Source: an uncultured Fibrobacterota bacterium (GTDB lineage: Bacteria; Fibrobacterota; Chitinivibrionia; Chitinivibrionales; FEN-1185). From it: a stretch of 64,000 bases of DNA. The stretch covers positions 64,001-128,000 of the forward strand of contig CAVWBU010000016.1 in the NCBI GenBank assembly GCA_963753345.1, given 5' to 3'. This document shows positions 17,709-36,737 of the stretch, one piece after another. How positions within the stretch are numbered: the stretch's first letter is position 1; each line of letters starts with the position of its first letter. A model generated the notes under the pieces. That model was not told the DNA's origin and did no database searches. It saw only the letters and a list, made by a program, of their open reading frames with translations. The position numbers were made by a program, and so were the translations under genes.

Positions 17709-17802
17709 ACACAACAGCCGCAGCACAAAAGCGCGGCTGACCTGTCGGATTGTTGAATGTATTGATAGGCCGCGTCTTTGTGCAATGCGGCGCACGTTCG
17801 TG
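17709..17802 (+). mobile_element. attC-like integron cassette recombination site
   Basis: ACACAAC-A-GCCGCA-GCACAAAAG-CGCGGC ... GCCGCG-TCTTTGTGC-AA-TGCGGC-GCAC-GTTCGTG: AAC/GTT ends and a long imperfect palindrome with extra bases. Confidence 0.6.
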
Positions 17803-18042
17803 CAAAATTGCTGGCTTGCCCAGAATCTATTCTTGCGTTTTTCATTTCTTGTACTCATCAATACCGAATAAATATTTAACATCTCAAAACAAATCTCATT
17901 TGAGAAGTCGTATCTCACTTTAATTCAATATGTTATAAATACACAGAAACAATGTTGATAGAATAATAGTTTATCATGAAAAAGGAATGTGCCGAAAAAT
18001 AGCTGTAAAATGCGATATTCTTCAACTTCTCATAAATAATTC

Positions 18043-18071
18043 TTGCAACTTTTCTATTTTGAGATTATATT
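18043..18071 (+). promoter_or_regulatory. Putative sigma70 promoter for the wHTH-NYN gene pair
   Basis: TTGCAA-17 nt-TATATT; AGGAGG RBS before 18115. Confidence 0.55.
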
Positions 18072-18114
18072 ATTCAAGGAAGGATAAATTTAAATAATCA
18101 TCTTAGGAGGCAAG

Positions 18115-18816: not shown

Positions 18817-18825
18817 GGAGCAAAA

Positions 18826-19326
18826 ATGGAAAAAGTAAATTTTGCATTCATTGATGGTCAAAACCTGAATCTTGGAATTCAACGCCTTGGTTGGAAACTG
18901 GATCTAAAAAGGTTCCGTATATATTTGAAAGAAAAATATGGGATTTCAAAGGCTTACTATTTTATTGGCTATCTCCCTGAAAACCAAAATCTTTATAAAT
19001 CCCTTCAGGAATTCGGATACGTTTTGATTTTCAAGCCTACAATGAAAACCCCTGACGGGAAAATCAAAGGGAACTGTGATGCCGAACTTGTTCTTCAGGC
19101 TATGATTGATTTTCCACATTATGACAAAGCCGTAATTGTGACCAGTGACGGAGATTTCAGTTGTTTAGTTGAATATTTCTATAGACAAAACAAACTGGAA
19201 GTAATCTTGTCTCCCGGCAGGGAGCACTGCTCAAGCTTGCTAAGAAAAGCGGGGAGAGAAAAGATTCAATTTTTGGACGATTTGAGGAATAAACTCGAGT
19301 TTCTAAAAGAAAAAGCACCGCTATAG
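18826..19326 (+). CDS. NYN domain (LabA/DUF88, PIN-like) ribonuclease
   Basis: AFIDGQNL, KGNCDAELVLQAM and IVTSDGDFSCLV: the acidic PIN/NYN catalytic residues are present. Confidence 0.9.
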   Translation: MEKVNFAFIDGQNLNLGIQRLGWKLDLKRFRIYLKEKYGISKAYYFIGYLPENQNLYKSLQEFGYVLIFKPTMKTPDGKIKGNCDAELVLQAMIDFPHYDKAVIVTSDGDFSCLVEYFYRQNKLEVILSPGREHCSSLLRKAGREKIQFLDDLRNKLEFLKEKAPL

Positions 19327-19363
19327 GACGAAACCTATAGAAGTGCCTTTTCATCGTAATCTT
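19303..19363 (-). ncRNA. Candidate small antisense hairpin RNA overlapping the NYN stop codon
   Basis: Minus-strand promoter TTGAAT(19398-19393)-17 nt-TATATT(19375-19370); two-part hairpin at 19309-19352 ending in a U-rich run on the minus strand. Confidence 0.4.
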
Positions 19364-19437
19364 ACTTTTAATATACGCCTTTCTTCGCCAAAATTCAAGC
19401 TCTTTCATTGCCATTGATGTCCTGAGCCAGCAACAAT

Positions 19438-19563
19438 GCACAACAGCCACGTTACGCAAGGCCCTTCGGGCACATGGCCAGCGTTTGAATAAGACGTGTC
19501 ATGTCGCTTTGCTCCGTCACGTTTTCTAACGCTGGCCACGTCGTAACACGGCAAACGTTGAGC
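19438..19563 (+). mobile_element. attC-like integron cassette recombination site
   Basis: GCACAAC-A-GCCACGTTACG ... TGGCCAGCGTT ... AACGCTGGCCA ... CGTAACACGGC-AAAC-GTTGAGC. GTTRRRY core; the mismatches become G-T pairs on the bottom strand. Confidence 0.68.
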
Positions 19564-19682
19564 TTTTCATTCACTCACATGCCATCCAGATCCGTAATAA
19601 TGAACTACAATGAGCAATAAAGGAGTCCCCATGCTTCATCACCCTCTACCTTTTATCAACAACCTGATCCCCTAACGCTCCC

Positions 19683-20404
19683 ATGAGACTTCTCTTCCTC
19701 CTGATCCCGCTTTCCTTTCTTTATTCAATATGCTGGCCCCAGGAACCTGCTGCTGTTTCTCGGAACAGCGTTTTCCCGGTAGTGATCATTGTTTCCACAA
19801 CCGGAACATCGATCTCATGGTTCTCGGCACCATTGGCGCCGCCCACGCGCGCAATCCCCATTTCACCTGGGCGCATCTCGATTCCCTGCTGCAGCGAATC
19901 GCCCCGGAGCTGCTTCTGGTGCAGATCCGTCCCGACCATTGTGACAAACAGGAATTCTTCGACGGCGCGCCCGACATGGCGTATCTGGCGCACGCCGCTC
20001 AGAAAATGAAGATTGAATGCCGCGGCATCGACTGGTGGCTCGACATGCAGATCGTGAATTGGGACAAGGTGGACCCAAAAGAGCGGATCGGACATATCAA
20101 TGAGAACATACGCAACGTCCTCGGTTCAACGCGCGCCCAAATGATCCTTATCGCCGTCGACCTGTCGTTCGTGGATTCGGTCCGCAACTGCCTGATCCTC
20201 GACAGCCTCAGGGAATGGACCTGTCCGCAGACCCGGTTCGCCCTTGCGAAGCCCTCCGACCTCCCGCCCGAAACGATCGACTTCTTCAGGGACGGAATGG
20301 TGTACCTGTCGTATTTGCCCTATGCCAGTGCCGCACCAGTGCAAAAGAAAATCAATGATCTGCGCGAGATTGTAAAAGGCAAGGGATATTGTTTCGAGCG
20401 TTGA
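19683..20404 (+). pseudogene. Hypothetical secreted protein, probably frameshifted near 19760
   Basis: Signal-peptide-like MRLLFLLIPLSFLYSICWPQ lies in the frame of 19683; the globular body (MVLGTIGAAH...PELLLVQIRP...GIDWW) lies in the frame ending at 20404. Confidence 0.45.
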
Positions 20405-21396: not shown

Positions 21397-22632
21397 TCAC
21401 TTTCTCAGCATGTCTCCCACCGCGAGCGCCTTTTCCGCATTCGCTATCACCAGCCTGTTTGTCAACGCCCTGTCCAGCCTGTTGCCTTCAAGATCGGTTA
21501 TTTCCCGGATTGCAGTCGCAAACGGCATTTTCTCCTTTCTCACCGGCAGGACGTTGAGAACGTCGCCTACACAGAACGGATTTTTCACGTCGACTACCGC
21601 GCCCCTGCCCGCGAGGATTTCACGCACCACCCCGACGATCCTCATTGTCGGGAGCGGCCTGCTGTCGGTCACGTCCTGAAGCGCGTATTCGCCCATATAG
21701 AACCCGGTGGTGTACGGCCGGTGGTCGAGCCGTTCGATCTCCTCGCGCCATTCCTGCCTCACCGCATACGCGCCGCCCGCGGCGACGGCGTCGAGCGCGG
21801 CGCGGTACACCTTGACAACCGACGAGACGTAATGCGCGCTCCGGTTGCGGCCCTCTATCTTCACCGATGCGACTCCCGTCCCGACGATGCGGTCGAGGAT
21901 GGGCAGGCAGCACAGGTCCTTTGAATTGAACAGGAACGCTTTCGCAGGCGCGTTGCCGTCTTCCTCCTCCACCGTGAACCACTCCCCTGTTTCCGTTTCG
22001 TTGTCGTACATGGGCGACACGCGGTACCGGAACCGGCACGGCTGGCGGCAGTCGCCCTGGTTGGGGTGCCGCCTGCCCGTATACACGCCGAGCAGGCACC
22101 TGCCGGACACCGACATGCACATGGCGCCGTGAACAAACGCTTCCATTTCTATTGGTGAGGAACGGCACATCTCTTCTATTTGCGCGAGCGTGAGTTCCCG
22201 CGGAAGCACGATGCGCGTTATCCCCTGGCCCGCCCAGAATGCAGCGGCTGCGCTGTTGAAAGTGCCGGTCTGGGTGCTCAGGTGAAGGGCGGTCGAAGGC
22301 GCGTACCTGCGGCACAGGGAAACAACACCCGGATCGCTCACGATGAACGCATGCGGCATTATTTCTTTTTTCGCAAGCCCTGCGAGAAGAGACTCGATGC
22401 CGGGCATGGTTTCGTCGACAGGCATGGTGTTGAGAGCGACGTAAACCTTGCTTCGCTTTTCATGTGCGAACGCCAGGAGTTCTCCAAGTTCCGAAGGCGC
22501 GGCGTTTTTCGATCGGGCGCGGAGGTTGTACGGACCCACGCCGATGTAGACCGCATCGGCGCCATGGCGCAACGCCGCGCGGGCGCATTCGGCGTCCGCG
22601 GCAGGCGCAAGAAGTTCCGGTAAATGGATCAT
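21397..22632 (-). CDS. U32 family protein, TrhP/YegQ-like (probable tRNA hydroxylation)
   Basis: PELLAPA, GADAVYIG, LHLSTQ, EAFVHGAMCMSVSGRCLL, GDCRQPCR, NSKDLC, KIEGR. Confidence 0.88.
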   Translation of the reverse strand: MIHLPELLAPAADAECARAALRHGADAVYIGVGPYNLRARSKNAAPSELGELLAFAHEKRSKVYVALNTMPVDETMPGIESLLAGLAKKEIMPHAFIVSDPGVVSLCRRYAPSTALHLSTQTGTFNSAAAAFWAGQGITRIVLPRELTLAQIEEMCRSSPIEMEAFVHGAMCMSVSGRCLLGVYTGRRHPNQGDCRQPCRFRYRVSPMYDNETETGEWFTVEEEDGNAPAKAFLFNSKDLCCLPILDRIVGTGVASVKIEGRNRSAHYVSSVVKVYRAALDAVAAGGAYAVRQEWREEIERLDHRPYTTGFYMGEYALQDVTDSRPLPTMRIVGVVREILAGRGAVVDVKNPFCVGDVLNVLPVRKEKMPFATAIREITDLEGNRLDRALTNRLVIANAEKALAVGDMLRK

Positions 22633-22669: not shown

Positions 22670-23194
22670 TCATTGCTGTTTTTCGGCCTTTGCGCCTCTG
22701 TGCTGGTCGGCCGAGTCGTTGCCGGTCCCGGCGGACGAAGAAGACGGCTCCTGACGCTTTTTCTGCGCGGCGGTGTCGGACTGCGCCGGCTTCATGGTAA
22801 GCACCTGTTGTATCGCCGATTCGTAGTCTTCCTTCGGCCTCAGGCCCTGCAGATACAAGACCACGGCCCTATCCTTTACAAAAAACACCGCGGGAATCGC
22901 AGACACGTGGAAATAGGCCGATACCTTCACATTCACGTCAACGTTTACCTTCATCACCTTTATTCGGCCGGCATATTTCTTCCTGATGTCCTCCAGGGTG
23001 GGACTCAGCATCCTGCACGGCATGCACCAGGTTGCCCAGAAGTCAATAAGCACCGGCACCTTTGACTTGAGGAGCTGGTCGACGATGATGTCCGACGAGT
23101 CGAAGGGCGCCTTGCTTTCCATAACGGGAGGAGGAAACTGCCCGAACGCAAGGACGTACAGAAATAGGACGACAGCAAGGGGTTTGAACGTCAT
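22670..23194 (-). CDS. Thioredoxin with N-terminal signal peptide
   Basis: PVLIDFWATWCMPCRMLSP, cis-Pro motif SAIP, hydrophobic leader. Confidence 0.9.
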   Translation of the reverse strand: MTFKPLAVVLFLYVLAFGQFPPPVMESKAPFDSSDIIVDQLLKSKVPVLIDFWATWCMPCRMLSPTLEDIRKKYAGRIKVMKVNVDVNVKVSAYFHVSAIPAVFFVKDRAVVLYLQGLRPKEDYESAIQQVLTMKPAQSDTAAQKKRQEPSSSSAGTGNDSADQHRGAKAEKQQ

Positions 23195-23228: not shown

Positions 23229-24368
23229 CTACTTCGGTTTCCTCGCGGCCTCCGCCTTCCGCGCCTCGTTCATACGCCGTATCTGCATCTTTTTCTTTTC
23301 GTGCTCTTCGCCGGTCATTGAGAAATCGTGCGCGCCCGACCCGTCCCATTTTGCCACAAAGTAAAGCTCCTTCGTCTGCGCCGGCGACAGCGCCGCGCGC
23401 AGCGACGCAAGCCCTGGCGAACAGATGGGGCCGGGAGGCAGTCCCGCGTACCGCCGGGTGTTGTACGGGGAATTCACGGCAAGGTCCGAAGCGAGCAGCG
23501 GGCCTGAGAACTTCCGCAGCACATACCGCACCGTGGGATCGGCGCCGAGCGGTATCCTCTTTACAAGCCGGTTGCAAAACACACCCGCCACAAGAGGACG
23601 CTCGGAATCGAGCGTGGCCTCTTTTTCCACGATCGAGGCGAGAATGATTACCTCGTGCCGCGAACGCGCGGGCGCGGAAGAATCGCGCGTGATGGAGGCG
23701 TACTGTTCGGCGCCGTGATCCACCATGCGCTTTACAATATCGAAAACCGTGACGTCGGGGGCAAACCGGTAGGTATCGGGGAACAGGTATCCCTCGGCGG
23801 ACTGCGCGGGAATGCCGAGCCGCCGCAGCGTCTCCTGGTCCCCGCAGACGCGCACGAATTCCGAGGAATCAACCGCAAGCGAGCGGCCGATTATCCCGGC
23901 GGTCTGTTCTATGGTGAGTCCCTCCGGAACGGTGACGATATGCTCTATCGGCTCGGCATGGAGCAGCTTTTGCGCCGCGGAAACCATTCCTTCGCCTTTG
24001 TAAAGCGACACCTTTCCGGCTTGGACCTTTTTTTCCATTCCCAGCAGTCTCACCCAGAAAACAAACGCAGTCGACGACGGTATCACCCGTTCTGCCTTGA
24101 GCTTCCGGGCCACACTATGGATTGAGGCGCCTTTTTCAACCACGATTTCAACGGGGACAGCTTTATCCAAGCGAGGCACGAACAGGTACACCGCCGCCCC
24201 CGCGATGAAGATCGCGACCAGCGCCAGAGAGAGAAAAAGGATCTTCAATTTCTGCATTAATCGGATCGACCACAGCACGCCGTAAAAAAGATATCCCAGC
24301 GCCGCAAGAAAATAAAGAGCGCCGGTGCACCACGTGCGGACAAGCGCTCTCAAAAAGCTGTTTTTCAT
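23229..24368 (-). CDS. mltG: Endolytic transglycosylase MltG (start may be 24257)
   Basis: VTVPEGLT, EGYLFPDTY, LASIVEKE, LGADPTVRY, SPYNTRRYAGLPPGPICSPG. Confidence 0.93.
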   Translation of the reverse strand: MKNSFLRALVRTWCTGALYFLAALGYLFYGVLWSIRLMQKLKILFLSLALVAIFIAGAAVYLFVPRLDKAVPVEIVVEKGASIHSVARKLKAERVIPSSTAFVFWVRLLGMEKKVQAGKVSLYKGEGMVSAAQKLLHAEPIEHIVTVPEGLTIEQTAGIIGRSLAVDSSEFVRVCGDQETLRRLGIPAQSAEGYLFPDTYRFAPDVTVFDIVKRMVDHGAEQYASITRDSSAPARSRHEVIILASIVEKEATLDSERPLVAGVFCNRLVKRIPLGADPTVRYVLRKFSGPLLASDLAVNSPYNTRRYAGLPPGPICSPGLASLRAALSPAQTKELYFVAKWDGSGAHDFSMTGEEHEKKKMQIRRMNEARKAEAARKPK

Positions 24369-24429
24369 GGTGCATGAACTGCGACAGTATGAGGAAGCCG
24401 GCGCGCCGCCCGCGGTTCCCGCGTCGTCC

Positions 24430-27400
24430 TTACCAGTCGGTGTTGGCGTCCTGCTTTCCGGTTGTCGTCTTGCCGCCCGAGGCCTTCTGCAAAACGAAAT
24501 TGTAAAGACTCTTGATCTTTTCGTCGTCCTGCTTGAGCTTTTCCGCTTTTTCAAGCAGCGGCAGCGCATCCGTGAGCCTGTCGGTCTTGACGTATCCCCT
24601 GGCCAGCTGGTACATGTAATCGGGCGTATTGGCCTTCAGCGCGTTGGCCATCTCCAGAAACACCATCGCGTCATTGAAGAGACGCCTGTTGAGCAGGGTG
24701 ATGCCGATGTCCTCGCACGCGTCGGGATTGGTGGCGTCGTGTTGGATGTACGTCTGATACGCTTCCGTCTCAAGCTTCGGTTTCCCGAGTTTCCCGTATA
24801 TCTTGCCGATCTCGATCCACATGAGCGGGAGCGTGTCCTTGAGCGAGAGCCCTTTCTTGAGCAACATCGCCGCTTTTTCGAGATTCGCGGGCTGTTTCGC
24901 ATAAAGCAAGCCGGCGCCGAGGTAATTCCGGTAGTCCTTCGGATTCTTCGCCAGGTTCTCCTCGTAAATCCTGGCCGCGGAGGCCGGGTTGAGCGATTCC
25001 TCGATCTGGGCCCTTCGATAGGAAGCCTCGGGGTCGTTCACGTCCGGCAGCTTGACATAGGCTGCGTAGGCGCTTGCGGCGTTTGCATTGTCCCCTGTCT
25101 TTTCGTAGGAATCGGCGAGCATCCGAAGCGTCACGGCGTTGTGCGGGTTCTTCGCCTTGCCGCTCTTGCTCAGGCCATGCAGCCTCTCAAAAATGTCCGC
25201 GCTTTTCCTGTAGTCCTTGGCATAGTAGTAGGCGCGCCCGTAAAGGAAAAGAAATTCCACGTCCTCACCCTTCTCCTTCACCGCCTTGTTAAGCAGCTTG
25301 ATCGTCTCTTCGTAGTTCTTCTTCTTGAACTCGTCTTCGGCCACCAGCAGCGCGATATCGGGGTCGTTGGTGGTGGATTTGGCAAGGTATTTCTTGTATG
25401 CCTCGATCGCGTCATCCCGCTTTTGCTCTTTCATGTAAAGATCGCCAAGGACCTTGCATTCCTGGGTCGCGTCCGGGTTTATGGCGACCACCTGCTGATA
25501 TGAAACGATGGCGTCGGCGGTGTTGCCGCTCCTCAGCTGGCAGCGCGCAAGCGACGACAGGAGGGCGGTGTTCTTCTGGTCGAGCGACAGCGCCTTATTG
25601 TAGCTGGCCATCGCCTTGGGGTAGAGCATCTTCTTCTCGTAGATCGAACCGAGCGTCGCATAGGTGGACGCATCGGCCTCGCCCGAGGCCACCATCTTGG
25701 TGAGCACCGCGACCACCTCTTCGGGAGTTCCCCGGGCCACCACAAGCTCGGCATACCTTTTGTAAACTCCCTTGACGGACGGGTCTATCGACAGGGCCGT
25801 GCGGTACGCGAGGAAGGCGCCGCTCAGATCCTTCTGGTCGTAGAGATAGTCGCCCAGGTCCTTCTGGGCGTCCGCGTCGTGCGGGTTGATGGCGATGTAC
25901 TTCTTGAGGTAGGCTATCGCGGCTTCTTTTTCGTTGTTGTGCATGGCGATGTCGTACAGGCTCTTGTACGCGTCCGCGTTGGCGGGTTCAATGGCCGCGA
26001 CCTGCCGCAGCAGTTCCTTTGCCTTGTCGTAATCCTTTTTCTGGAGACAGGCCTGCGCATAGGCGTTAAGGAAGGAAACCTTTCTCGCATCTTCGCCCGC
26101 GACCATGCCGAAATACCGCACCGCATCGTCGTAGTTCTTGTTTTTAAACGCGTCCTGGCCCACAAAGACGGCGATCGCATAGTCTTTGGGCTGTTTTTCC
26201 AGGTACTTTTTGTAAACGGTCACCGCCTGGTCCTGTTTCTTCTGCTGCAGGTACATCTCGCCGAGCAGTTTGTACACCCGCATCTCCTGCGGATTGACGG
26301 CAATGACCTGCTCGTACGTGACGGCCGCCTCCGTGGTGTTGCCGGTCTTCACCTGGCAGGCGCCGAGCGCCATGAGCAGTGCGGTGTTCTTCGGATCGGA
26401 CGCAAGCGCCTTCTGGAACATCTGGATGGCCTGCGGGTACAGACCCTGCTTCTCGTAGACAATGCCCTGAGCGTTGTACATGGCGGCATCGGCCTCGCCC
26501 GCGGCAATCGCCCCCTTGACGGCTGCGGAAACCTCCGCGGAAAGCCCCTGCTCCGTGGCCATTTCAAAGTATCGTTTGTAAATTCCCTTGATGGTCGGAT
26601 CGAGCGCCAGCGCCTTCTTGTAGGCGGCGAGCGCACCGGGGAATTCCTTCCTCTCGTACAGAAGATCGCCCAGGTTCTTCTGCGCCGTTGCATCCGACGG
26701 CTTGAGAGCAAGGTATTTCCTGAGGTATCCCGCAGCGGCGGTTCTCTGGCTCGAGTCCTGCCACGCGATGGTGTACAGGATCCTGTAAACGTCCGGATTG
26801 TTCGGGGTGAGGATGGCGAGCTGGGCATACAGGTCTTTCGCCTTGTCGTAGTCCTTTTTCTGGTAGCACGAATACGCGTACATGGAAAGATAGGCGGACG
26901 TCTTTGTTTCGGTGCCCGCCACCATGCCGAGATATTTCGCGGCCTCGTCGTAGTTCTTGTTCGTGTACGCGTACTCGCCGATGGTGTACGCCACGGCATA
27001 GTCCTTAGGCTGTTTGTCAAGATATTTCTTGTACGTGGCGATCGCGAGGTCCTTCTTGTTCTGCGCAAGGTACATGTCGCCGAGCAACTTGTTCACGCGG
27101 GCGTCCTGGGGGCTTAGCGCGAGCACCTGTTCGTAGGTGACCGATGCCTCGGCGGAATTGCCGGCTTTCACCTGGCACGAAGCAAGCGCCATCAAAACCG
27201 CCGTGTTCTTGGGGTCCGTCGCAAGCGATTTCTGGAACATCTGGATGGCCTTGGCATACTGGGCTTCACGCTGGTAGGTGTTTCCCTGCGACGCGTACAT
27301 CCCCGCGTCGGCCTCGCCCGCGTTGATCGCGCCGGAAAGCGCCGCGCTGATGTCGGTCTGCACGCCGAGGGCGGTCGCGAGCTCGAAATACCTTTTGTAA

Positions 27401-30144
27401 ATTCCTTTGATGGACGGGTCGAGCGCCAGCGCCTTGCGGTATGCCGCAAGCGCGCCGGAATTTTCCTTCTGCGCATAGAGAAGGTCGCCCAGGCTTTTCT
27501 GTGCCGATGCATCGGACGGCTTGAGCGCAAGATATTTGCGCAGATACCCCGACGCCTCGGCGCCCTGCGAGGAGTCCTGCTGCGCAATGGTGTACAGGAG
27601 CTTGAACACTTCCGGATTGCCCGGCGTGAGGACAGCGAGCTGGTTGAGCGTGGCGGAGGCTTTCTTGTAGTTCTTTGCGAAGTAGCACGCCTGACCATAC
27701 TGCATGAGAAAACCCGTACGCTTGGTGTCTTCGCCGCTCACCATGGCAAAGTACTTTGCGGCCTCGTCGTAATTCTTCTGCTTGAAGGCGTACGATCCCA
27801 CGGCCAGCGCCACCTTGGAATCGTCTTTCCGCTTGTCAAGATACCTCTTGTAAATGGCCGCCGCCTCGGCCTCCTTGTTCTGCCTGGTGTACAGGTCGCC
27901 GAGAGCCTTGAGCTCGTCGACGGCCGCGGGATTGAGCGCGACCACCTGCTCGTAGGTGACCACCGCCGCGTCAATGGCGCCCGTTTTCGCCTGGCACTGC
28001 GCCAGACCGGCAAGCACCGGAACGTCCTTGGGATTCTTTGCAATGGCGCTCTGAAACAGATCTATCGCCTTGGTGCAGTTCCCCTGCCGCTGGTACGAAA
28101 GCGCGAGCGTCGCATACATGTTCGCATCGGCCTCGCCGGCGGCAACGGCACCGGCAAGGGCGGCGGTGAGCTCTTCACGCGGACCGCGCGTCATGATGAT
28201 TTCGGCGTACTGTTTGTAAAACCCCTTGATCGTCGGATCAAGCTTGATGGCGGCGTGGAACGCTGCGAGCGCCGCGTCGAAGTTCTTGACATCGTAGTAC
28301 AGGAGCCCGAGGTTCCGCTGCGCCACCGGGTCTGCGGCATTGAACGTGATGTACTTCTTGAGATACGTCGCCGCCGAGGCCTTGTCGCCGCTGTTGAGCG
28401 TTATCTCGTACAGGCTCTTGAACACCTCGGGGTTCTGCGGGGTGAGCGCGGAAAGCTCCTTGTAAATGTCGAACGCCGCCTTGTAGTCCCGCTGGGAAAG
28501 TTCGTACGCGCCCAGGCGCAGGCGCGACTCAACGTTGGTCTTGTCGAGCTCGATCACTTTCTTGTCGGCATAGGCCATATTGACCATGTCGTTGAGCTTT
28601 TTATAGCAGTAGGCAAGCTGTTTCCAGTACTCGACCTCGAACGGCTTTTTTCCCACGAGGACATCAAGCTGTTCCTTTGCCTCCTTGTATTTGTCGCTTC
28701 TCAGGTACCCCTTCGAAAGCACCATCCGCGGCTCCATGAGCGTGGGGTCGAGCCTGACTGCGGATTCCGCCGCGTCAATGGCCTTGTCCCACTGTTCGAG
28801 CGCGGACGCGGCCTGGGCGATGCCCGCCGCAGCCTTCACGTTTCTGTCGATGAGATAGCTCTTTTCGTAGTATTTCAGCGCGTCCGCGTACTTCTTCGCC
28901 TTGAGGTTGTAGTCGCCGAGCGTGATGAATATCTTGGGATCGTTGGGACTTATCGCAATTATTTTTTCGTACACTTTATTCGCCTTGTCGGGCATGCCGC
29001 TCTTCGTGTAGAAATCGGCAAGGTGCGCATATGCCTCGACGTTCTTGGTGTCGGTCGCGACGACCTTTTCCATGCACGCAATGGCCCTGGCGAAGTTGCC
29101 CGTACCGCTGTACGCATCTGCGAGCAGAAACTGAATGTCGGGAACCCGTGTTCCATCGGAATCCGCCGCTGCGATAAAGCGAAAATGGACAAGCGCGGAC
29201 TCGAAGTTTTTCTTTCCAAGGTCGTAGTTTCCCGCCTTGAGGTGCGACGTGATGGCCTCCGGGGACTTGTCACCCGCAAAGGCGTCCGCGGCCGCACGGT
29301 AGGCAGTAAGCGCGCTTTCTGCGCTGCCGGTTTTTTCCTGCGAAACCGCGCGGTAATACTGGTCCATCGCTTCAAGTTTTATCTTGCTGGCGATTTTCTC
29401 AAATTCATTCGCCGCGGCGAGGAACTTGTCCTTGAGGTAATATGCGCGCGCAAGCGCAAGGTTGGCGGCATACAGATTCGGGTTCCGGGCAATGGCGTCC
29501 TTGAGGTAGTAAATGGCCGAATCGAGCCGGTTCGCTTCAACGAGCGACCTGCCGATTCTGTATGCGTCGTCGGCGTTGGGCTGGGAAGCATAGGCAACCT
29601 TGAGCAGCGGTATTGCCTTCTTGTATTCCTGTTGCTGCCAGTAAATCTTGGCCAGTCCCCTGCTCGCGGCCGCGTTTGACGGATCTGATTGGATCACTCG
29701 TTCGAGCGCTTCCTTAGCCTCGTCCGTTTTCTTGAGCGCTATGCATGCCTTGGCGTATTCCCAGCTTGCCTCACCCGTGGCCTGAAGGTCCATGGCCTTT
29801 TTCGCGAACATCGCGGCGTTGTCGGGCTGGTTCAAATTATTGTAGACACGCGCCACGCCAAGCTGGGCGTCGTAGCTCTTGACGTCCATGCGCGACGCGA
29901 CCAGAAAACAGGCGAGCGCCTTTTCGGTGGTCCCGAGTTCCTCGTTGGCGATGCCGACCTTTACCCACACGTCTGCGGTGCGCACGTTGGACGGCAGCTT
30001 CGAGTCTGCATAGGCAATGGCGTCCTGGTACTTCTTCGACCGCACGAGCTGGTCGAGCGTAGAATCCGCAAATGCGGCAAACGCGACCGCCCCGATTCCG
30101 AATGAAAGGAAAAAAACGCGAATACTCCCCCGGCGTATCTTCAT
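24430..30144 (-). CDS. Giant secreted tetratricopeptide repeat protein (1904 aa)
   Basis: Signal peptide, continuous TPR motifs, and about four copies of a ~272-aa super-repeat. Confidence 0.9.
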   Translation of the reverse strand: MKIRRGSIRVFFLSFGIGAVAFAAFADSTLDQLVRSKKYQDAIAYADSKLPSNVRTADVWVKVGIANEELGTTEKALACFLVASRMDVKSYDAQLGVARVYNNLNQPDNAAMFAKKAMDLQATGEASWEYAKACIALKKTDEAKEALERVIQSDPSNAAASRGLAKIYWQQQEYKKAIPLLKVAYASQPNADDAYRIGRSLVEANRLDSAIYYLKDAIARNPNLYAANLALARAYYLKDKFLAAANEFEKIASKIKLEAMDQYYRAVSQEKTGSAESALTAYRAAADAFAGDKSPEAITSHLKAGNYDLGKKNFESALVHFRFIAAADSDGTRVPDIQFLLADAYSGTGNFARAIACMEKVVATDTKNVEAYAHLADFYTKSGMPDKANKVYEKIIAISPNDPKIFITLGDYNLKAKKYADALKYYEKSYLIDRNVKAAAGIAQAASALEQWDKAIDAAESAVRLDPTLMEPRMVLSKGYLRSDKYKEAKEQLDVLVGKKPFEVEYWKQLAYCYKKLNDMVNMAYADKKVIELDKTNVESRLRLGAYELSQRDYKAAFDIYKELSALTPQNPEVFKSLYEITLNSGDKASAATYLKKYITFNAADPVAQRNLGLLYYDVKNFDAALAAFHAAIKLDPTIKGFYKQYAEIIMTRGPREELTAALAGAVAAGEADANMYATLALSYQRQGNCTKAIDLFQSAIAKNPKDVPVLAGLAQCQAKTGAIDAAVVTYEQVVALNPAAVDELKALGDLYTRQNKEAEAAAIYKRYLDKRKDDSKVALAVGSYAFKQKNYDEAAKYFAMVSGEDTKRTGFLMQYGQACYFAKNYKKASATLNQLAVLTPGNPEVFKLLYTIAQQDSSQGAEASGYLRKYLALKPSDASAQKSLGDLLYAQKENSGALAAYRKALALDPSIKGIYKRYFELATALGVQTDISAALSGAINAGEADAGMYASQGNTYQREAQYAKAIQMFQKSLATDPKNTAVLMALASCQVKAGNSAEASVTYEQVLALSPQDARVNKLLGDMYLAQNKKDLAIATYKKYLDKQPKDYAVAYTIGEYAYTNKNYDEAAKYLGMVAGTETKTSAYLSMYAYSCYQKKDYDKAKDLYAQLAILTPNNPDVYRILYTIAWQDSSQRTAAAGYLRKYLALKPSDATAQKNLGDLLYERKEFPGALAAYKKALALDPTIKGIYKRYFEMATEQGLSAEVSAAVKGAIAAGEADAAMYNAQGIVYEKQGLYPQAIQMFQKALASDPKNTALLMALGACQVKTGNTTEAAVTYEQVIAVNPQEMRVYKLLGEMYLQQKKQDQAVTVYKKYLEKQPKDYAIAVFVGQDAFKNKNYDDAVRYFGMVAGEDARKVSFLNAYAQACLQKKDYDKAKELLRQVAAIEPANADAYKSLYDIAMHNNEKEAAIAYLKKYIAINPHDADAQKDLGDYLYDQKDLSGAFLAYRTALSIDPSVKGVYKRYAELVVARGTPEEVVAVLTKMVASGEADASTYATLGSIYEKKMLYPKAMASYNKALSLDQKNTALLSSLARCQLRSGNTADAIVSYQQVVAINPDATQECKVLGDLYMKEQKRDDAIEAYKKYLAKSTTNDPDIALLVAEDEFKKKNYEETIKLLNKAVKEKGEDVEFLFLYGRAYYYAKDYRKSADIFERLHGLSKSGKAKNPHNAVTLRMLADSYEKTGDNANAASAYAAYVKLPDVNDPEASYRRAQIEESLNPASAARIYEENLAKNPKDYRNYLGAGLLYAKQPANLEKAAMLLKKGLSLKDTLPLMWIEIGKIYGKLGKPKLETEAYQTYIQHDATNPDACEDIGITLLNRRLFNDAMVFLEMANALKANTPDYMYQLARGYVKTDRLTDALPLLEKAEKLKQDDEKIKSLYNFVLQKASGGKTTTGKQDANTDW

Positions 30145-30820: not shown

Positions 30821-32227
30821 ATGAACCATCTCCCCGCGAAAATCCTCCTCCTGTGCCTCGCGATGCCGCCATGCGCGTTCTTCTCCGTCAAGGCGGATAC
30901 GCTCGAGCTGCTCGAACCGGCCGTGCCGGCCGATTCCATGCTCTCTTTTCCCAAGAAAATCGTGGAAATCAATTACTGCGGCAACCGCGTCACCAATCCC
31001 CGGATGCTGCGGCTGTACCTCGGCATCGACACGGGCATGGTCTACGACTCCGTCCTCATCGCGGCGGGAAAAAAGCGGCTCATGGACACCTACCTTTTCT
31101 CAAAAGTCGAGGTTCTCCGCCTGCAGAATGCCGACGGCGTGCATGTGTGGATTCTCGTGACCGAATTCTTCTACTGGGTTCCCACCGGCGGCGGCGAAAT
31201 AATTTCGGGAAGGTACGGCGATTCAAGCCAGGTCTGGTACCGGCTGCGCCTCGGCGTGAGCCTGCTGAACTTCCGGGGGCTTTTCGAAACATTTACGGTA
31301 AGCGGTTCGGTATGGGACGACAAGGCGCTCTCCCTGTCATGGAGCAAGCCGTTGGTCCCCTCCCCGTACAATTTCAGCATCGGCGCCGCGGTGGAAGAAT
31401 ACCCCGACGTGAGTTTTCCACGGAGAAGGTTCGTGGCAAACAGCAGGGTGTCGTTCGGACGAAGGTTCTTCTCGAATTCGAGATCGTATTTGTCAATAGC
31501 ACCCACCTACAACAAGATCACCCGCATCGACTCGACCGACGTTTCGAACAGCCGGGTGAGCTACGAGGAAGTTGTTACGCAGTGGGGATGGGTGACGGAC
31601 AGGAGAAACACCTCCTTTGACCCCACCGCGGGCTGGTCCATCCATACCGCGCTCAACACGAACGCTGTCTACGCCGGACTCAACAACCCCTATCTTCAAT
31701 GGATGAACGACCTGAAACTGTACCACGGCGGTTTTTTCTCTGCAGACCGTTTTGCATGCCGTCTCACCTTGACGCTCCGGACCAACGACGCCGGACCGTA
31801 CCGGGCCCTGTACATCGGCGGCGACGGGTCGGTGCGCGGGTGGGCGCGCGACGAACTCGGGCGGTCCGCCGTCATGAACGACTTCGCTGTTGCGTCGGGC
31901 GAATACCGCTTCCCGATCTGGCGACCCACACCGTCCTTCGACGTGCCGATGCTCTGCGACTACGCCCCGAGTCTCAGGGGCTTCTATCTCCGCGCGGACG
32001 GGGCGGTCATCCTTGACGGAGGCAGCATCTGGAGGGACATTGAACACCCCTTTGACGTCCACGAAAACGGCGAAGGCGTGGGGTTCGGGCTCAGAATCAT
32101 GGCGCCAACGCTCCTCCGCTGTGCATGCTTCGACGTTGTCTGGCCATTGCAGGGAAGCGAAAATCCCCTGCACATCCGGTATTCCCTCACCCCCGCCTTG
32201 TACTTGTATCTTGACATGTACTATTAA
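30821..32227 (+). CDS. Omp85/BamA-TamA family protein with a single POTRA domain
   Basis: Signal peptide, GNRVTNP POTRA, NFRG, loop-6 motif SVRGW, SGEYRFP, GVGFGLR. Confidence 0.85.
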   Translation: MNHLPAKILLLCLAMPPCAFFSVKADTLELLEPAVPADSMLSFPKKIVEINYCGNRVTNPRMLRLYLGIDTGMVYDSVLIAAGKKRLMDTYLFSKVEVLRLQNADGVHVWILVTEFFYWVPTGGGEIISGRYGDSSQVWYRLRLGVSLLNFRGLFETFTVSGSVWDDKALSLSWSKPLVPSPYNFSIGAAVEEYPDVSFPRRRFVANSRVSFGRRFFSNSRSYLSIAPTYNKITRIDSTDVSNSRVSYEEVVTQWGWVTDRRNTSFDPTAGWSIHTALNTNAVYAGLNNPYLQWMNDLKLYHGGFFSADRFACRLTLTLRTNDAGPYRALYIGGDGSVRGWARDELGRSAVMNDFAVASGEYRFPIWRPTPSFDVPMLCDYAPSLRGFYLRADGAVILDGGSIWRDIEHPFDVHENGEGVGFGLRIMAPTLLRCACFDVVWPLQGSENPLHIRYSLTPALYLYLDMYY

Positions 32228-32330: not shown

Positions 32331-32359
32331 TTGACATGCTGCTCCGGAAACTGTATTTT
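32331..32359 (+). promoter_or_regulatory. Putative sigma70 promoter of the U32-reductase-cyclase operon
   Basis: TTGACA-17 nt-TATTTT, then GGAGG RBS before ATG 32386. Confidence 0.55.
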
Positions 32360-32385
32360 CTTGAGGCTCCTACGGAGGCTCCTTA

Positions 32386-33684
32386 ATGAAATTCTCGGTT
32401 GCGTGCAACTTCGATGTCGCCCTGCTGGAAGGCCTGAGGCCCTATCCTGTCTACGAACTTTTCGGCAAGTTGACCGTCGATCACTTCGGCGGTGGGCGGC
32501 CGTCATTCTATCTTCCGGCGGTGAATTCCAACAGGCTGAAGGCATACGTCGACGCCTGCCATTGCCAAAAAATCGCCTTCAATTATCTGCTCAACGCGTC
32601 AACCATGGGCAACGTGGAATTTACGCGACAGGGGCAGCGAAAGTTTACCGAGATGCTCGAGTGGCTCGACGCCATGGGCGTCGACTCGATAACCGTATCG
32701 AGCCTGTTCTTCCTCAAGATCATCAAGAAGCGGTGCCCGCGGATCAAGGTGCGAATAAGTTCTCACAGCTTCACGGACACGCCGCGGAAGATACGGTTCT
32801 GGGCAGACTCGGGCGCGGACTACATCGTGATTTCCGAAGTGGGCATCTACCGTGAATTCAAGGTGCTCGAGGCCATGCGGAAAGCTGCGGGCGACGCGGT
32901 CGAACTGCAGCTCATCGTCAACAACTGGTGCAGGCAGGACTGCGCCATTGCCGGCATTCACGCGGCCGCTCTCAACGCCGCCTCGCAGAAGAATTCGCGC
33001 GGATTCCCGCTTGACTACTGCTTCATCTACTGCAATTATCTTCGTTTCACCGAGCCGGTCAATTTTGTGCGCGCCAACTGGATACGCCCCGAAGACCTTC
33101 ATTATTACGAGGACATCGGATACGAGAATTTCAAAATCGTCGAGCGCAACACCCCCACCAAGATCCTTGTGGAGCGCGTCAAGGCCTACTACAACCGGCG
33201 CTACGACGGGAACCTTCTCGATATGCTCCAGAACTACGCCTACCCCCACGAGAAGTTCTCGGAACGCGAGCTGGAATACTTTTCGACCTGGCGCCTGATC
33301 AAATATTTCCTGAAGCCGGCGGCCGTAAACCTTTTCAAGTTCATAAAGGTGATCAAGATCGGAAAGACCGCCAGCATTCTGTATCCGCTGCATGGCCCGA
33401 ACCCCGTTTTCATTGACAACCGGAAGCTCGACGGTTTTCTGGAGCGGTTCCAAGCAAGCGGCTGCGCGTCCCGCGATTGCAACGAGTGCCGGCACTGCCA
33501 TTCGTGGGCCGACAAGGCGGTGGCCATCGACCCGCAGTGGAATTCCGCACTCAAGGAAGTTTTCGACGAACTCCTGGGCGAATTGCACTCCGGCGCGTTC
33601 TGGGAACCGTATTACAAGTCGGCCGTCGGGTTCACCAAGAAGATGTCCAAGAATCTGCTGCGGCGCGCCGTGCGTTCCGCGTGA
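32386..33684 (+). CDS. U32 family protein (Fe-S, divergent subfamily)
   Basis: FGGGRP, FNYLLNA, GVDSITVS, LQLIVNNWCRQDC...H...YCFIYC Cys set, WIRPEDLHYYEDIGYENFKIVER (equivalent to the U32 KIEGR). Confidence 0.82.
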   Translation: MKFSVACNFDVALLEGLRPYPVYELFGKLTVDHFGGGRPSFYLPAVNSNRLKAYVDACHCQKIAFNYLLNASTMGNVEFTRQGQRKFTEMLEWLDAMGVDSITVSSLFFLKIIKKRCPRIKVRISSHSFTDTPRKIRFWADSGADYIVISEVGIYREFKVLEAMRKAAGDAVELQLIVNNWCRQDCAIAGIHAAALNAASQKNSRGFPLDYCFIYCNYLRFTEPVNFVRANWIRPEDLHYYEDIGYENFKIVERNTPTKILVERVKAYYNRRYDGNLLDMLQNYAYPHEKFSERELEYFSTWRLIKYFLKPAAVNLFKFIKVIKIGKTASILYPLHGPNPVFIDNRKLDGFLERFQASGCASRDCNECRHCHSWADKAVAIDPQWNSALKEVFDELLGELHSGAFWEPYYKSAVGFTKKMSKNLLRRAVRSA

Positions 33685-34787
33685 TGAAAAGCGACATCCC
33701 GATTTGCGTCATAGGCGCCGGGCCGTGCGGCTCGACAGCGGCACGGTTGCTCTCGGAGAACGGCTGCCGATGTGTCAAGCTCCTTGAAAAGAAGTCCTGG
33801 CCAAGGCCCAAGACGTGCGCCGGCGGTATCGGCCCCCGCGCACGTGCGTGGCTTTCCCGGCAGGGTCTGCTCGCGGATCTCACGCCCATGGCAGCGAGAA
33901 TTTCGAGTCTCTATTTCACGGCGCCGTCGGGCAGGAGCGCCCGCCTCGTCTCCCCGGGCGAGATGGCGCTGGTGGTTCCCCGTGACCGTTTCGACGACTT
34001 CCTGGTACAGCGAGCCGTACATGCCGGCGTCGATTTCAGGCCGTCCGTGAAAGTTACGGCAATTACTCGCCGCAAGGACGGCGTCGTTCTTTCGACTTCA
34101 GAGGGCGACATCGAAGCCGCCGCGGTCGTTGTTGCCGCCGGTGCGATAAGCGGCATTCCTGGAGCGAGCCCTTCCGACGGCCGCACCCTCTCCTCGATCA
34201 TGGTGCGCTATGCCGATTTTCCGCACAATCCTTCCGAGATGGAGATGATCTTTCCCTCAATTATTTCGCCGTTCTATGCATGGCTTTTCCCCGAGCCGGG
34301 CGGCAGCGTTAACATTGGAATGATCACGCGTGGTACGTTAGGGGCCTCGTCGCTGCATGAGGTGTTCGACGGTATCCTCGAACGGTATTTCGGTTCCCGT
34401 ATTTCTAACGCCCGGCTGGTGGGCCATCGGACAGGCGCGCCGGTCCGATGCTCTGGCCGTGTTGGACCGATGGTTGACGGCCGCGTATTGTGGGCGGGCG
34501 AAAACGCGGGGCTCGTTAACGGCGCGACCTGCGAGGGAATTCCCTATGCCCTGGAAAGCGGTGAGCTTGCCGCTGCCGCGATCGCCAGGGCGGCACCCGG
34601 GAACCTTTTCGACCAGAAATCCCTATGCTCCTACCAACGCGCGGCGCAACGCCGATTTTCCATGCCGCTTGGTCTTGCCGCGGCCTTCAGGGCCTTTATT
34701 GGAAGCGCGGCGTTTCCTCCGGCCGCCGACCTGGGCACACTTCCCCTATTCCAACGCCTCTCGGCTTTCGTGCTTGCAAAGGTATAG
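33684..34787 (+). CDS. Geranylgeranyl reductase-like FAD-dependent oxidoreductase
   Basis: VIGAGPCGSTAA, LLEK..WPRPKTCAGGI, RDRFDDFL, YAWLFP, GENAGLVNGATCEGIPYALESG; TGATG overlap with the U32 gene. Confidence 0.85.
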   Translation: MKSDIPICVIGAGPCGSTAARLLSENGCRCVKLLEKKSWPRPKTCAGGIGPRARAWLSRQGLLADLTPMAARISSLYFTAPSGRSARLVSPGEMALVVPRDRFDDFLVQRAVHAGVDFRPSVKVTAITRRKDGVVLSTSEGDIEAAAVVVAAGAISGIPGASPSDGRTLSSIMVRYADFPHNPSEMEMIFPSIISPFYAWLFPEPGGSVNIGMITRGTLGASSLHEVFDGILERYFGSRISNARLVGHRTGAPVRCSGRVGPMVDGRVLWAGENAGLVNGATCEGIPYALESGELAAAAIARAAPGNLFDQKSLCSYQRAAQRRFSMPLGLAAAFRAFIGSAAFPPAADLGTLPLFQRLSAFVLAKV

Positions 34788-34790
34788 AAC

Positions 34791-36737
34791 ATGCCTTCAA
34801 CCGTCGCAACGGCCCGCGCAGCAATCGATCGCTCCCTGCGCCGTTTGGCCGAAATTCAAACCAGCCGGGGAGCGTGGGAAGGCGAGGTGGTGTGGTCTCC
34901 CGTTGTGTTGGCTCAATACCTCATCACGCGCACCATTGTTGGAAAACCGGCCCCGGCCGACTTGCACGCGGAATACCTGCGCCACTTTACAGCATGGCAA
35001 ACGCCGGACGGCGGATGGGGCTTGCATGCCGAGTCGCCGGCGTACCTATTCGTCACCACGCTCGCCTATGTTGCGCTGCGCATGATCGGCGTTCCGTCGG
35101 ATGATGCTCGCCTCGTGAGGGCCAGAACTCTAGTCCGCGCGCTCGGTACGCCGCTTGCCATTCCAACATGGGGCAAGGTCTGGCTCGCATTCTGCAATTT
35201 GTATGAATATGGGGGCATATATCCTCTTCCGCCCGAGCTGTGGCTGTTCCCCCGATTTTTTCCCGTTCATCCATCGCGTTTGTACTGCCACACGCGGCTC
35301 ATCTACCTGGGCATGAGTTACCTCTACGCTAAGCGGTTTCGTCGTCCCGCCGACCCGCTCTGCTACGCATTGCGCGATGAGCTTTACGGCCGGCCCTATG
35401 AGAGCATCGACTTTCGCACAGAAGGAAGACGGCTGTCGCAGCGCGACCTTTTCAAGGCGCCGTCCCGATCGCTCGCCGCGGGTTATGCGGTTTTGCGATG
35501 TGTGGAGCGATGGAGCCCGGCTGCTCTACGGAAGCGCGCTTGTGCGGTGGCGCTCTCAAGAATCGAATACGAGCAGCGGTCGACCAACTATGCAGCGCTA
35601 TCCCCTGTCAACGGTCTGCTCAACATCCTCGCTCTGTATGCGGCCGACGCGCGCCACCCCGATCTCGAGCCGTCGCTCGACGGAATGGAGCATTGGAAGT
35701 GGAGCGATGAAAAGGAAGGCGTGCGGTACAACGGGGCACGCAGCCAGACATGGGACACCGCATTCGTGGTGCAGGCGGTCGCGGCGGCAAACGCGGACGA
35801 TTCTTTTTCTCCTGCGCTCTCCAGGGCCGGAGCCTTTCTTCGCGAAAATCAATTGCGCGACGAGATCCCTAATGGACCGGCCTTCTACCGTGATACGTGT
35901 GCAGGCGGCTGGTGCTTTTCCGATGCGCGTCACGGGTGGCCGGTAAGTGACACCACCGCCGAAGCGCTGTGCGCGGCCCTTGCGCTGCGCGAGCGCGGGT
36001 TGGAAACCCTCGACGAACCCGCTCTAAAAGACGCGGTGCGGTTCATCCTCTCCCGCCAGAATCCCGGGGGCGGCTGGGGATCATACGAACGAAAACGCGC
36101 CGGCCTTGCGCTCGAACGCATTAATCCCTCCGAGATGTTCGGCAATTGCATGGTTGAGCATTCGTACGTCGAATGCAGCGCATCGGCCCTCGATGCGCTC
36201 GCCCGGTTTCGACGGGCATTCCCCTCGACGGAATTGACAAAAGCGATTAGCGCTTCAATGAAACGCGGCGAGCGCTTCCTTGTAAGGGCGCAGATGTCCG
36301 ACGGATCGTGGCCTGGATTCTGGGGCCTCAATTACACGTATGGCACGTTCTTCGCCGTGCGCGGCCTCCTGGCCTGCGGACGTCAGTCGAGCGACGGCGC
36401 GATCCGCCGCGCCTGCGACTGGCTCATTGCGCACCAGAAGTCCGACGGCGGCTGGGGGGAGCACTGGACCAGTACTGTTCAGGGACGCTATATAGAGCAC
36501 CCGCAAAGTCAGGTGATAATGACCGCTTGGGCGCTTTTGACCTTGCTTCTCGCAAAGGACCCGCGTCGCGCCGCAATCAATCGCGGTGCCGACCTGCTTA
36601 TTGCGCGACAACTGCACAACGGCTCCTGGCCCAAGGAAGGCGTCGCCGGCGTCTTTTTCAACACCGCCATGCTTCATTACGAGCTATACCGCGATTATTT
36701 CCCTCTCTGGGCGCTCGGTCTTTTCGAAAGGGAATGA
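34791..36737 (+). CDS. 2,3-oxidosqualene cyclase-like triterpene cyclase
   Basis: Five QW motifs; IPTWGKVWL; LPPELWL; LYCHTR; SQTWDTAF; catalytic GWPVSDTTAE (OSC DCTAE type, not SHC DxDD); NPSEMFG; YVEC; YTYGTFF; YRDYFPLWALG. Confidence 0.9.
   Translation: MPSTVATARAAIDRSLRRLAEIQTSRGAWEGEVVWSPVVLAQYLITRTIVGKPAPADLHAEYLRHFTAWQTPDGGWGLHAESPAYLFVTTLAYVALRMIGVPSDDARLVRARTLVRALGTPLAIPTWGKVWLAFCNLYEYGGIYPLPPELWLFPRFFPVHPSRLYCHTRLIYLGMSYLYAKRFRRPADPLCYALRDELYGRPYESIDFRTEGRRLSQRDLFKAPSRSLAAGYAVLRCVERWSPAALRKRACAVALSRIEYEQRSTNYAALSPVNGLLNILALYAADARHPDLEPSLDGMEHWKWSDEKEGVRYNGARSQTWDTAFVVQAVAAANADDSFSPALSRAGAFLRENQLRDEIPNGPAFYRDTCAGGWCFSDARHGWPVSDTTAEALCAALALRERGLETLDEPALKDAVRFILSRQNPGGGWGSYERKRAGLALERINPSEMFGNCMVEHSYVECSASALDALARFRRAFPSTELTKAISASMKRGERFLVRAQMSDGSWPGFWGLNYTYGTFFAVRGLLACGRQSSDGAIRRACDWLIAHQKSDGGWGEHWTSTVQGRYIEHPQSQVIMTAWALLTLLLAKDPRRAAINRGADLLIARQLHNGSWPKEGVAGVFFNTAMLHYELYRDYFPLWALGLFERE

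Follow-up and report, generated by a model that had tools for sequence, protein, structure and literature searches.

Two enzymes known to epoxidise squalene, the flavoprotein squalene epoxidase (SE; SQMO/ERG1, PF08491) and the di-iron alternative squalene epoxidase (AltSQE), are often encoded next to bacterial oxidosqualene cyclase (OSC) genes, and both, to our knowledge, need O2. On the strength of this O2 requirement, steranes are read as signs of oxygenated settings and sterol synthesis is dated against the Great Oxidation Event; squalene epoxidation is treated as O2-requiring in PMC8364164 and, in the section of PMC12414744 that weighs scenarios of cyclase evolution, is stated to need O2. 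An O2-independent chemistry has been described for the U32 protein family. UbiU and UbiV of Escherichia coli (YhbU/YhbV), the O2-independent hydroxylases of ubiquinone synthesis, depend on prephenate, the product of chorismate mutase, which genetics and 18O labelling identify as their oxygen donor (PMC10990095); according to the same account this donor is proposed for U32 proteins generally, an 18O-shikimate label exists, and the family members TrhP and RlhA likewise depend on prephenate and hydroxylate RNA substrates (tRNA and rRNA) without O2. Here we describe a three-gene operon, encoding a divergent U32-family protein, a geranylgeranyl reductase (GGR)-family flavoprotein and an OSC-type triterpene cyclase, in a 64,000-nucleotide stretch of DNA from an uncultured Fibrobacterota bacterium (contig CAVWBU010000016.1 of assembly GCA_963753345.1, positions 64,001 to 128,000; hereafter the window). 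Our analysis slightly favours the view that the three genes act as a compact unit in making a sterol-type triterpenoid, one that is 3-oxygenated and OSC-derived, with the usual O2-dependent SE replaced.

The operon and its parts were assigned as follows (window positions):

32386-36737, plus strand: U32-GGR-OSC operon of three co-oriented genes, from open reading frame (ORF) calls.
32331-32359, plus strand: putative sigma-70-like promoter (TTGACA-17-TATTTT), 27 nt 5′ of the first start codon, a consensus match only.
32386-33684, plus strand: gene 1, divergent U32-family Fe-S protein of 432 aa, predicted from PF01136, the AlphaFold2 (AF2) fold, conserved Cys residues and orthologues.
33684-34787, plus strand: gene 2, GGR-family flavoprotein of 367 aa, from TIGR02032, Cys45 and YAWLFP.
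34791-36737, plus strand: gene 3, OSC-type triterpene cyclase of 648 aa with VSDTTAE, from TIGR03463 and alignment to 1W6K.

The start of gene 2 is an internal ATG of ORF 33477-34787, and in the resulting TGATG overlap the stop codon of gene 1 and the ATG of gene 2 share base 33684. Genes 2 and 3 are separated by 3 nt, and a GGAGG precedes the ATG of gene 1. The promoter candidate was the top sigma-70-like match between positions 30000 and 38000 (10/12 positions; 8 sites found versus 2.5 expected). The co-orientation, overlap, gap and promoter motif listed in an initial annotation of this DNA were all recovered when the sequence was re-read.

Gene 3 carries the hallmarks of an OSC. Its translation contains VSDTTAE, YCHTR, NPSEMFG and YVEC, and in the alignment VSDT stands at the position where squalene-hopene cyclase (SHC)-like outgroups have DxDD, confirming both the signatures and the missing DxDD motif that had been noted at the outset. 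The protein scored 489 bits against human lanosterol synthase (1W6K) versus 166 against the SHC of A. acidocaldarius, 814 bits against the osq_cycl profile TIGR03463 versus 246.5 against the hopene cyclase profile, and 529.5 bits against the wider TIGR01787 (cut-off 322.7). The score of 814 lies below the TIGR03463 cut-off of 851, as did the scores of most bacterial OSC-type genes found in this analysis. VSDTTAE aligned with VSDCTAE of 1W6K: the catalytic Asp is retained, and Thr takes the place of the adjacent Cys456. Equivalents of His232, Cys533 and Tyr503 are likewise retained, in what we take to be the residue numbering of 1W6K. Gene 3 thus resembles the bacterial lanosterol, cycloartenol, parkeol and arborinol synthases in its full-length architecture, its catalytic residues and its position in the OSC clade rather than with the SHC-like outgroup, and differs from them in having DTTAE instead of DCTAE and in its score below the profile cut-off. 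The DTTAE variant recurs in the two Fibrobacterota cyclases nearest to gene 3 and in a single Myxococcota genome that has SE, and is therefore compatible with an ordinary epoxide pathway. Because of this motif, and because the early-branching bacterial OSCs characterised in PMC12414744 did not accept squalene in the assays reported there, we infer that gene 3 would cyclise 2,3-oxidosqualene and not squalene.

The initial annotation had found no recognisable epoxidase in the window, and this lack extended to the whole genome (55 contigs, 94.3% complete). PF08491 matched none of the three operon proteins and nothing in the window or genome, and no gene of the FA_hydroxylase (AltSQE) family was found in the genome, so that AltSQE is rejected as the missing epoxidase here. 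Gene 3 is the only cyclase of this genome.

The protein encoded by gene 1 matched Peptidase_U32 (PF01136) with 38.3 bits (cut-off 22.4) over residues 86-150, corresponding to positions 3-67 of the 233-position profile; NCBIfam yielded no match and a PDB sequence search returned nothing meaningful. Its AF2 model (pLDDT 84.7, pTM 0.85) found the U32 protein Mk0906 (5d88) as the top PDB fold match (E 3.2e-9, TM 0.74 on target), four orders of magnitude ahead of the next matches, which were generic TIM barrels (E 2e-5 or worse). Across 29 homologues, Cys182, Cys186 and Cys216 were invariant and Cys212 nearly so, and a second, C-terminal set (Cys360, 365, 368 and 371; CX4CX2CX2C) was invariant as well. 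When the gene 1 profile was compared with 1.84 billion representative sequences, one cluster scored 762 bits and the next 540 or less, with 666 clusters at E<1e-30. Judged by these similarities, the gene 1 group is a tight orthologous group within a wider family of U32-like proteins of about 390 aa.

The association of this U32 protein with a cyclase was found to recur. A scan of species-representative genomes yielded 92 U32 relatives, and the best 80 loci (55-87% identity) were kept; a cyclase was called adjacent when a tblastn match lay 3′ of the U32 gene, on the same strand and within 1.5 kb. Such a cyclase was present in 39 of the 80 loci. Counting only the 67 loci that continue for at least 1.5 kb downstream, the figure is 39/67; the other 28 of these had no cyclase, and 13 loci ended at a contig edge. 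The metagenome-assembled genomes (MAGs) with an adjacent cyclase carry the labels Fibrobacterota, Spirochaetota, Myxococcota and Deltaproteobacteria. Regardless of adjacency, an OSC-type cyclase was encoded in 75 of the 80 orthologue-bearing genomes (39 adjacent; 36/40 elsewhere in the genome), and none was found in the genome of G035, whose contig ends inside the operon. Recurrence of the neighbourhood, which the initial annotation had proposed to check, was therefore observed across phyla, and neither a canonical epoxidase in the genome nor a want of conserved linkage, named there as jointly damaging to its proposal, was found.

A separate sample of 301 evenly drawn Myxococcota genomes pointed in the same direction. 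With an orthologue threshold of at least 50% identity, 33 of the 301 genomes contained an OSC and 14 a U32 orthologue, the latter occurring in 11/33 OSC-positive versus 3/268 OSC-negative genomes (Fisher p 1.5e-9, no phylogenetic correction). In the cyclase tree, every row of the OSC clade shows one Asp at the site of the DxDD found in SHC-like outgroups, and the same holds for all 37 U32-adjacent cyclases in its alignment, within the pattern xxD(C/T)T(A/S/G)E. Of these, 33 fell into one supported clade, while the Fibrobacterota cyclases and that of L034 were placed elsewhere, so that U32-cyclase adjacency requires at least three changes on the tree. Conversely, the Fibrobacterota and Spirochaetota proteins were sisters in the U32 tree (SH-aLRT 95; L040 and L071 left out), whereas their cyclases belong to different OSC clades, indicating that the U32 gene has been combined with different OSC lineages. 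This reassortment favours a functional module over a single inherited accident, and the U32 orthologue is very probably coupled to the OSC pathway in function.

Chance placement beside the cyclase of a U32 protein with a housekeeping role (protease or RNA hydroxylase), or of a gene of the shikimate pathway, would in principle account for the database labels (U32 peptidase or collagenase) and for the possible housekeeping nature of the CM-DAHPS neighbour described below. It would leave unexplained an adjacency spanning at least four phylum-level labels with reassorted partners, a 44-fold enrichment of the orthologue in OSC genomes, and the separate presence in this window of a canonical U32 protein with the U32_C domain. 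We regard such a coincidence as scarcely credible.

Adjacency also went together with a lack of SE. PF08491 was detected in 5/39 genomes with an adjacent cyclase versus 20/28 non-adjacent ones (p 1.6e-6, no phylogenetic correction), or, by genome group, in 5/40 of the first group and 28/40 of the second, in which the locus lacks an OSC. Among the OSC-positive Myxococcota, the orthologue was present in 5/8 genomes without SE versus 6/25 with SE (p 0.08). The pattern of SE replacement is therefore clear for adjacency and only a trend for mere presence of the orthologue. Three of the five SE-positive genomes with an adjacent cyclase (G022, G028 and G031; loci L035, L045 and L050) have the U32 gene, a cyclase, SE and an SQS_PSY gene in one cluster, possibly a dual O2-dependent and O2-independent arrangement comparable to that of UbiU/V plus UbiI/H/F.

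A second recurrent neighbour links the U32 gene to prephenate. A co-oriented gene for 3-deoxy-D-arabino-heptulosonate 7-phosphate (DAHP) synthase lay within 400 nt of the U32 gene in 44/80 loci, and a CM_2 chorismate mutase (CM) domain was detected in 41 of the 44 DAHP synthase (DAHPS) genes scanned, a set that excludes L025 because its gene has an internal stop. The fusion occurs as CM-DAHPS upstream of the U32 gene or, in Bacteroidota, as DAHPS-CM downstream of it. In total, a cyclase and/or a CM-DAHPS gene adjoins the U32 gene in 69/80 loci. The internal stop of the CM-DAHPS gene in L025, a Myxococcales MAG (L025:6814-7851), reflects either a pseudogene or a sequencing error. Five types of cluster were distinguished:

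Type A: hpnE, hpnD and hpnC, divergent from a farnesyl diphosphate synthase gene (FPPS), CM-DAHPS, U32, an optional GGR gene and the cyclase.
Type B (Spirochaetota): TetR, U32, cyclase, DXS, FPPS-like, type-2 IDI, DUF116 and DXR.
Type C (Fibrobacterota, this window): U32, GGR and cyclase.
Type D: DUF3419, U32 and cyclase, with divergent DUF35, thiolase and HMGS, with or without DUF116.
Type E (SE genomes): CM-DAHPS with U32 alone.

By their predicted functions, the partners of the U32 gene are throughout those of isoprenoid and squalene supply (methylerythritol phosphate or mevalonate pathway genes, a synthase of the farnesyl diphosphate type and hpnC/D/E-like genes).

Taken together, these data lead us to lean, by a small measure, towards the U32 protein being an O2-independent, prephenate-fed substitute for SE. 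The protein would take oxygen from prephenate, as UbiU/UbiV do, and oxidise squalene, or an equivalent C30 precursor, at the terminal double bond by two electrons, forming the 2,3-epoxide without O2 while its two Cys clusters pass the electrons on. The cyclase would then open the epoxide to a tetracyclic or pentacyclic 3-ol, and the GGR-family protein would saturate a side-chain double bond in the manner of Bsr, a homologue from myxobacterial sterol clusters. In organisms that retain SE, the U32 gene would serve as a low-oxygen alternative, as UbiU/V do to UbiI/H/F. With UbiU-UbiV, gene 1 shares the U32 TIM barrel, conserved Cys residues that may bind an Fe-S cluster, a presumed membrane isoprenoid lipid as substrate, the proposed replacement or doubling of an O2-dependent flavin monooxygenase and a genomic tie to prephenate. 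It differs in being a single protein and no heterodimer, in matching PF01136 over residues 86-150 only, in its extra C-terminal CX4CX2CX2C and the other spacing of its first four Cys residues, and in the proposed epoxidation of an alkene instead of the hydroxylation of a ring. With SE and AltSQE it would share the pathway position, and often the cluster position next to osc, while their folds and cofactors are unrelated to those of U32. The initial annotation had likewise let the U32 protein stand in for the O2-dependent epoxidase, which agrees with the lack of SE and AltSQE, the conserved adjacency, the co-occurrence with OSC, the anti-correlation with SE and the CM-DAHPS neighbour; its further assumption of an anaerobic host is only partly supported and that of squalene as the substrate is unsecured, as detailed below.

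A number of observations weigh against a U32 protein that replaces SE, beginning with the family itself. All 80 loci are labelled as MAGs, and the database names of the relatives (best 120 of 897) are only the generic 'U32 family peptidase' or 'collagenase-like PrtC'. The spacing of the first four Cys residues in gene 1, CX3C-X25-CX3C, is unlike CX6CX15CX3-4C, which we take to be the 4Fe-4S motif of U32 proteins. Moreover, we know of no U32 enzyme that epoxidises an alkene. The U32 reactions described in PMC10990095 are hydroxylations of aromatic or heteroaromatic rings, and the epoxidation of an isolated alkene would be a different reaction. As regards distribution, 33 of the 80 orthologue-bearing genomes also have SE, and conversely three of the eight SE-less, OSC-positive Myxococcota lack it; of these three, one has a partial cyclase only, one a divergent cyclase and one a genome of 3.1 Mb.

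These observations bring forward the main rival explanation, in which the U32 protein acts after cyclisation, hydroxylating or oxidising a methyl group or the side chain of the triterpenol without O2, and the epoxide comes from an unrecognised enzyme. The 33 SE genomes, where no substitute epoxidase is needed, would fit such a role, as would the position of the U32 gene in SE genomes, away from the cyclase and still beside CM-DAHPS, and the fact that the U32 enzymes characterised in PMC10990095 are hydroxylases. It would, however, mean that 34 of the 39 genomes of the adjacent type had no epoxidase to serve a cyclase that depends on an epoxide, and FA_hydroxylase-family genes are absent from 20/36 of these genomes. 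In addition, hydroxylation of an unactivated sp3 carbon fits poorly with the cation-quench mechanism that PMC10990095 proposes for U32 enzymes, and the same account presents dual O2-dependent and O2-independent systems as the rule for ubiquinone. We consider action after cyclisation unlikely, although it is the alternative to be taken most seriously.

Oxygen is the second point of difficulty for the epoxidase substitution. The initial annotation had taken the host for an anaerobe, and the genome does encode the anaerobic ribonucleotide reductase NrdD, with neither cytochrome bd nor FeFe hydrogenase found in it; it also encodes a COX1-family heme-copper oxidase, however, and the status of anaerobe was only in part borne out. 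Among 35 SE-less relatives, 20 have COX1 and 25 cytochrome bd, such that 28 have one or the other and 7 have neither. From this gene content, the SE-less hosts would be facultative or adapted to low oxygen, and not demonstrably strict anaerobes. Since the host and its relatives have oxidases, O2 may be available to them and an unrecognised O2-dependent epoxidase is possible.

A candidate for such an enzyme within the operon would be gene 2, acting as a divergent O2-dependent SE with the U32 protein as an accessory. SE and GGR are both FAD-dependent flavoproteins with two dinucleotide-binding domains, gene 2 matched flavin monooxygenase families weakly, and the host oxidase implies that O2 may be present. 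On the other hand, gene 2 passed the cut-off of the GGR profile (GG-red-SF, TIGR02032; 166.5 bits versus 158.8), yielded no match to PF08491, and retains Cys45 and Y198-A-W-L-F-P203, invariant or conserved across 11 sequences, which correspond to the conserved Cys and YxWxFP named as Bsr/GGR features in PMC12004948. Furthermore, a GGR gene lies directly 3′ of the U32 gene in just 12/80 loci, and in 7/39 cyclase-adjacent ones. A GGR homologue with demonstrated activity in a sterol cluster is Bsr of Sandaracinus amylolyticus, which reduces the C-24 double bond of sterols (Lee and Welander 2025, J Bacteriol, PMC12004948). Gene 2 resembles Bsr, as judged by profile and motifs, in its family, its Cys and YxWxFP signatures and its sterol-cluster setting; the published clusters differ in coming from aerobic cholesterol producers with SE, and U32 goes unmentioned in that paper. 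An epoxidase role of gene 2 thus appears very improbable. Instead, it is probably a Bsr-like sterol side-chain (C-24) reductase, which agrees with the role first proposed for the flavoprotein, the reduction of a prenyl or side-chain double bond. A predicted complex of the U32 and GGR proteins (score 0.00, mark 0.32) gave no evidence either way.

The third difficulty concerns the substrate. No SQS_PSY squalene synthase was found in the genome (custom hidden Markov model against six-frame ORFs, nothing at E<10), and a custom search of it for HpnC/D returned nothing. SQS_PSY is also missing in 13 of 40 relatives (all three other Fibrobacterota, seven Spirochaetota MAGs and three more). Squalene is therefore unsecured as the substrate in this organism, and the source of its C30 chain is unaccounted for. 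A cyclase that uses no squalene-derived substrate, in a module that oxidises and cyclises another polyprenoid, would agree with these absences and with the evolutionary lability in chain linkage of cyclase substrates that PMC12414744 describes. Its full-length OSC architecture with sterol-type catalytic residues, and the presence of SQS or HpnCD in 27/40 related clusters or genomes, argue otherwise. Polyprenyl synthases with short-chain (C15/C20) products are marked by an aromatic residue located five positions ahead of their first DD motif, and this residue was found in the single polyprenyl synthase of the genome and in those of the clusters. By that rule the synthases look short-chain, and a head-to-head step would still be needed.

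Such a step might involve DUF116 (PF01976), which tracks the SQS-poor genomes. Among 41 U32-OSC genomes it was found in 13/14 without SQS_PSY, in 9/9 with one match and in 0/18 with at least two; among 14 control genomes, it occurred only in the two methanogens, both of which lack SQS_PSY. Its gene lies inside the Spirochaetota isoprenoid-U32-cyclase cluster (e.g. L009:7427-7969) and, in the genome under study, on contig C46 (L096:8771-9628). The AF2 model of the DUF116 protein was mediocre (pLDDT 72, pTM 0.48) and matched no PDB fold at E<=0.001, and a literature search for it brought up only DUF1162/VPS13 papers. DUF116 may be part of an unrecognised way of making the C30 substrate, and could help to make squalene itself. 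We view a different polyprenoid substrate as rather improbable, somewhat more so than a U32 protein acting after cyclisation.

Finally, the supply of prephenate raises questions for the epoxidase substitution. Neither a CM_1 nor a CM_2 chorismate mutase was found in the genome, which does encode a prephenate dehydratase (C41:33070-33603); its DAHP synthase (C27:166397-167479) carries a ferredoxin-like regulatory domain and not a CM domain. The chorismate mutase of this organism may be of an unrecognised type or unassembled. In three of five genomes checked with a CM-DAHPS cluster (G005, G007 and G017), the cluster copy was the sole CM_2 of the genome and may therefore be the housekeeping one; a rule by which the clusters carry an additional chorismate mutase of their own was not upheld.

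The surroundings of the operon in the window comprise the following features:

21397-22632, minus strand: canonical U32 protein (PF01136 with 256 bits, plus U32_C), 10 kb upstream of the operon.
24430-30144, minus strand: tetratricopeptide repeat (TPR) protein of 1904 aa, almost wholly TPR, in the region directly upstream of the operon.
30821-32227, plus strand: Omp85/BamA-like outer-membrane protein, in the region directly upstream of the operon.

No tie of the TPR and Omp85 genes to the operon was seen across related loci, and the 3′ flank is formed by kdpE, kdpD and kdpCBA on the opposite strand. Because these flanking genes are unrelated to it, the operon appears self-contained. The canonical U32 gene adjoins genes for a thioredoxin and a YceG/MltG-like protein (22670-23194 and 23229-24569), and its product probably hydroxylates RNA as TrhP and RlhA do; in a profile-profile comparison it was related only weakly to gene 1 (probability 7%, residues 48-177), the match ending before the Cys region. 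Positions 16001-20000 have a G+C content of 0.43-0.50 versus 0.55-0.62 in the rest of the window and may constitute an acquired island.

Two further U32 genes were noted elsewhere in the genome. A paralogue with 35% identity on contig C40 (L098:7392-8606, minus strand) lies in a cluster (L098:3074-8606) with a type III polyketide synthase, a UbiE-like methyltransferase and a ketoacyl synthase, which looks like an alkylresorcinol or alkylquinone cluster with the U32 gene in the place where an O2-dependent hydroxylase is expected. The third, on contig C32, has one TGA inside the match. Near-identical DNA was present in metagenome runs from peat, freshwater sediment and soil (three studies, one of them possibly the source), and none of the sequencing runs listed with a near-identical sequence was an RNA run.

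In the literature searched, no paper linking U32 proteins or prephenate with sterols, squalene or OSC was found, although supplements (Table S2 and Fig. S4 of PMC12004948; the cyclase tables of PMC12414744) may list such clusters; 'U32' in PMC12329461 proved to be a slide coordinate and not a protein. It is possible, though we advance it more tentatively than the replacement of SE in this operon, that the 2,3-epoxide is formed without O2 by bacteria living in peat, sediment and other settings poor in oxygen, by means of a dedicated U32 Fe-S enzyme that draws its oxygen from prephenate. If true, the first supposedly obligatory O2 step of sterol and arborinol biosynthesis would not be obligatory, free oxygen could not be read from OSC triterpenoids alone, nor from the steranes and arboranes that they leave as fossils, and the OSC lineage could predate the rise of O2; a second piece of this reading would be a C30 route independent of SQS_PSY, possibly with DUF116. 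The genes for U32, chorismate mutase and OSC, in some cases joined by one for a Bsr-like reductase, form a conserved and testable set in many SE-less genomes. For the U32 family, such a reaction would extend its prephenate chemistry from ring hydroxylation to the oxygenation of alkenes, and would provide a role for the gene 1 orthologues, a tight group that databases at present label peptidase or collagenase.

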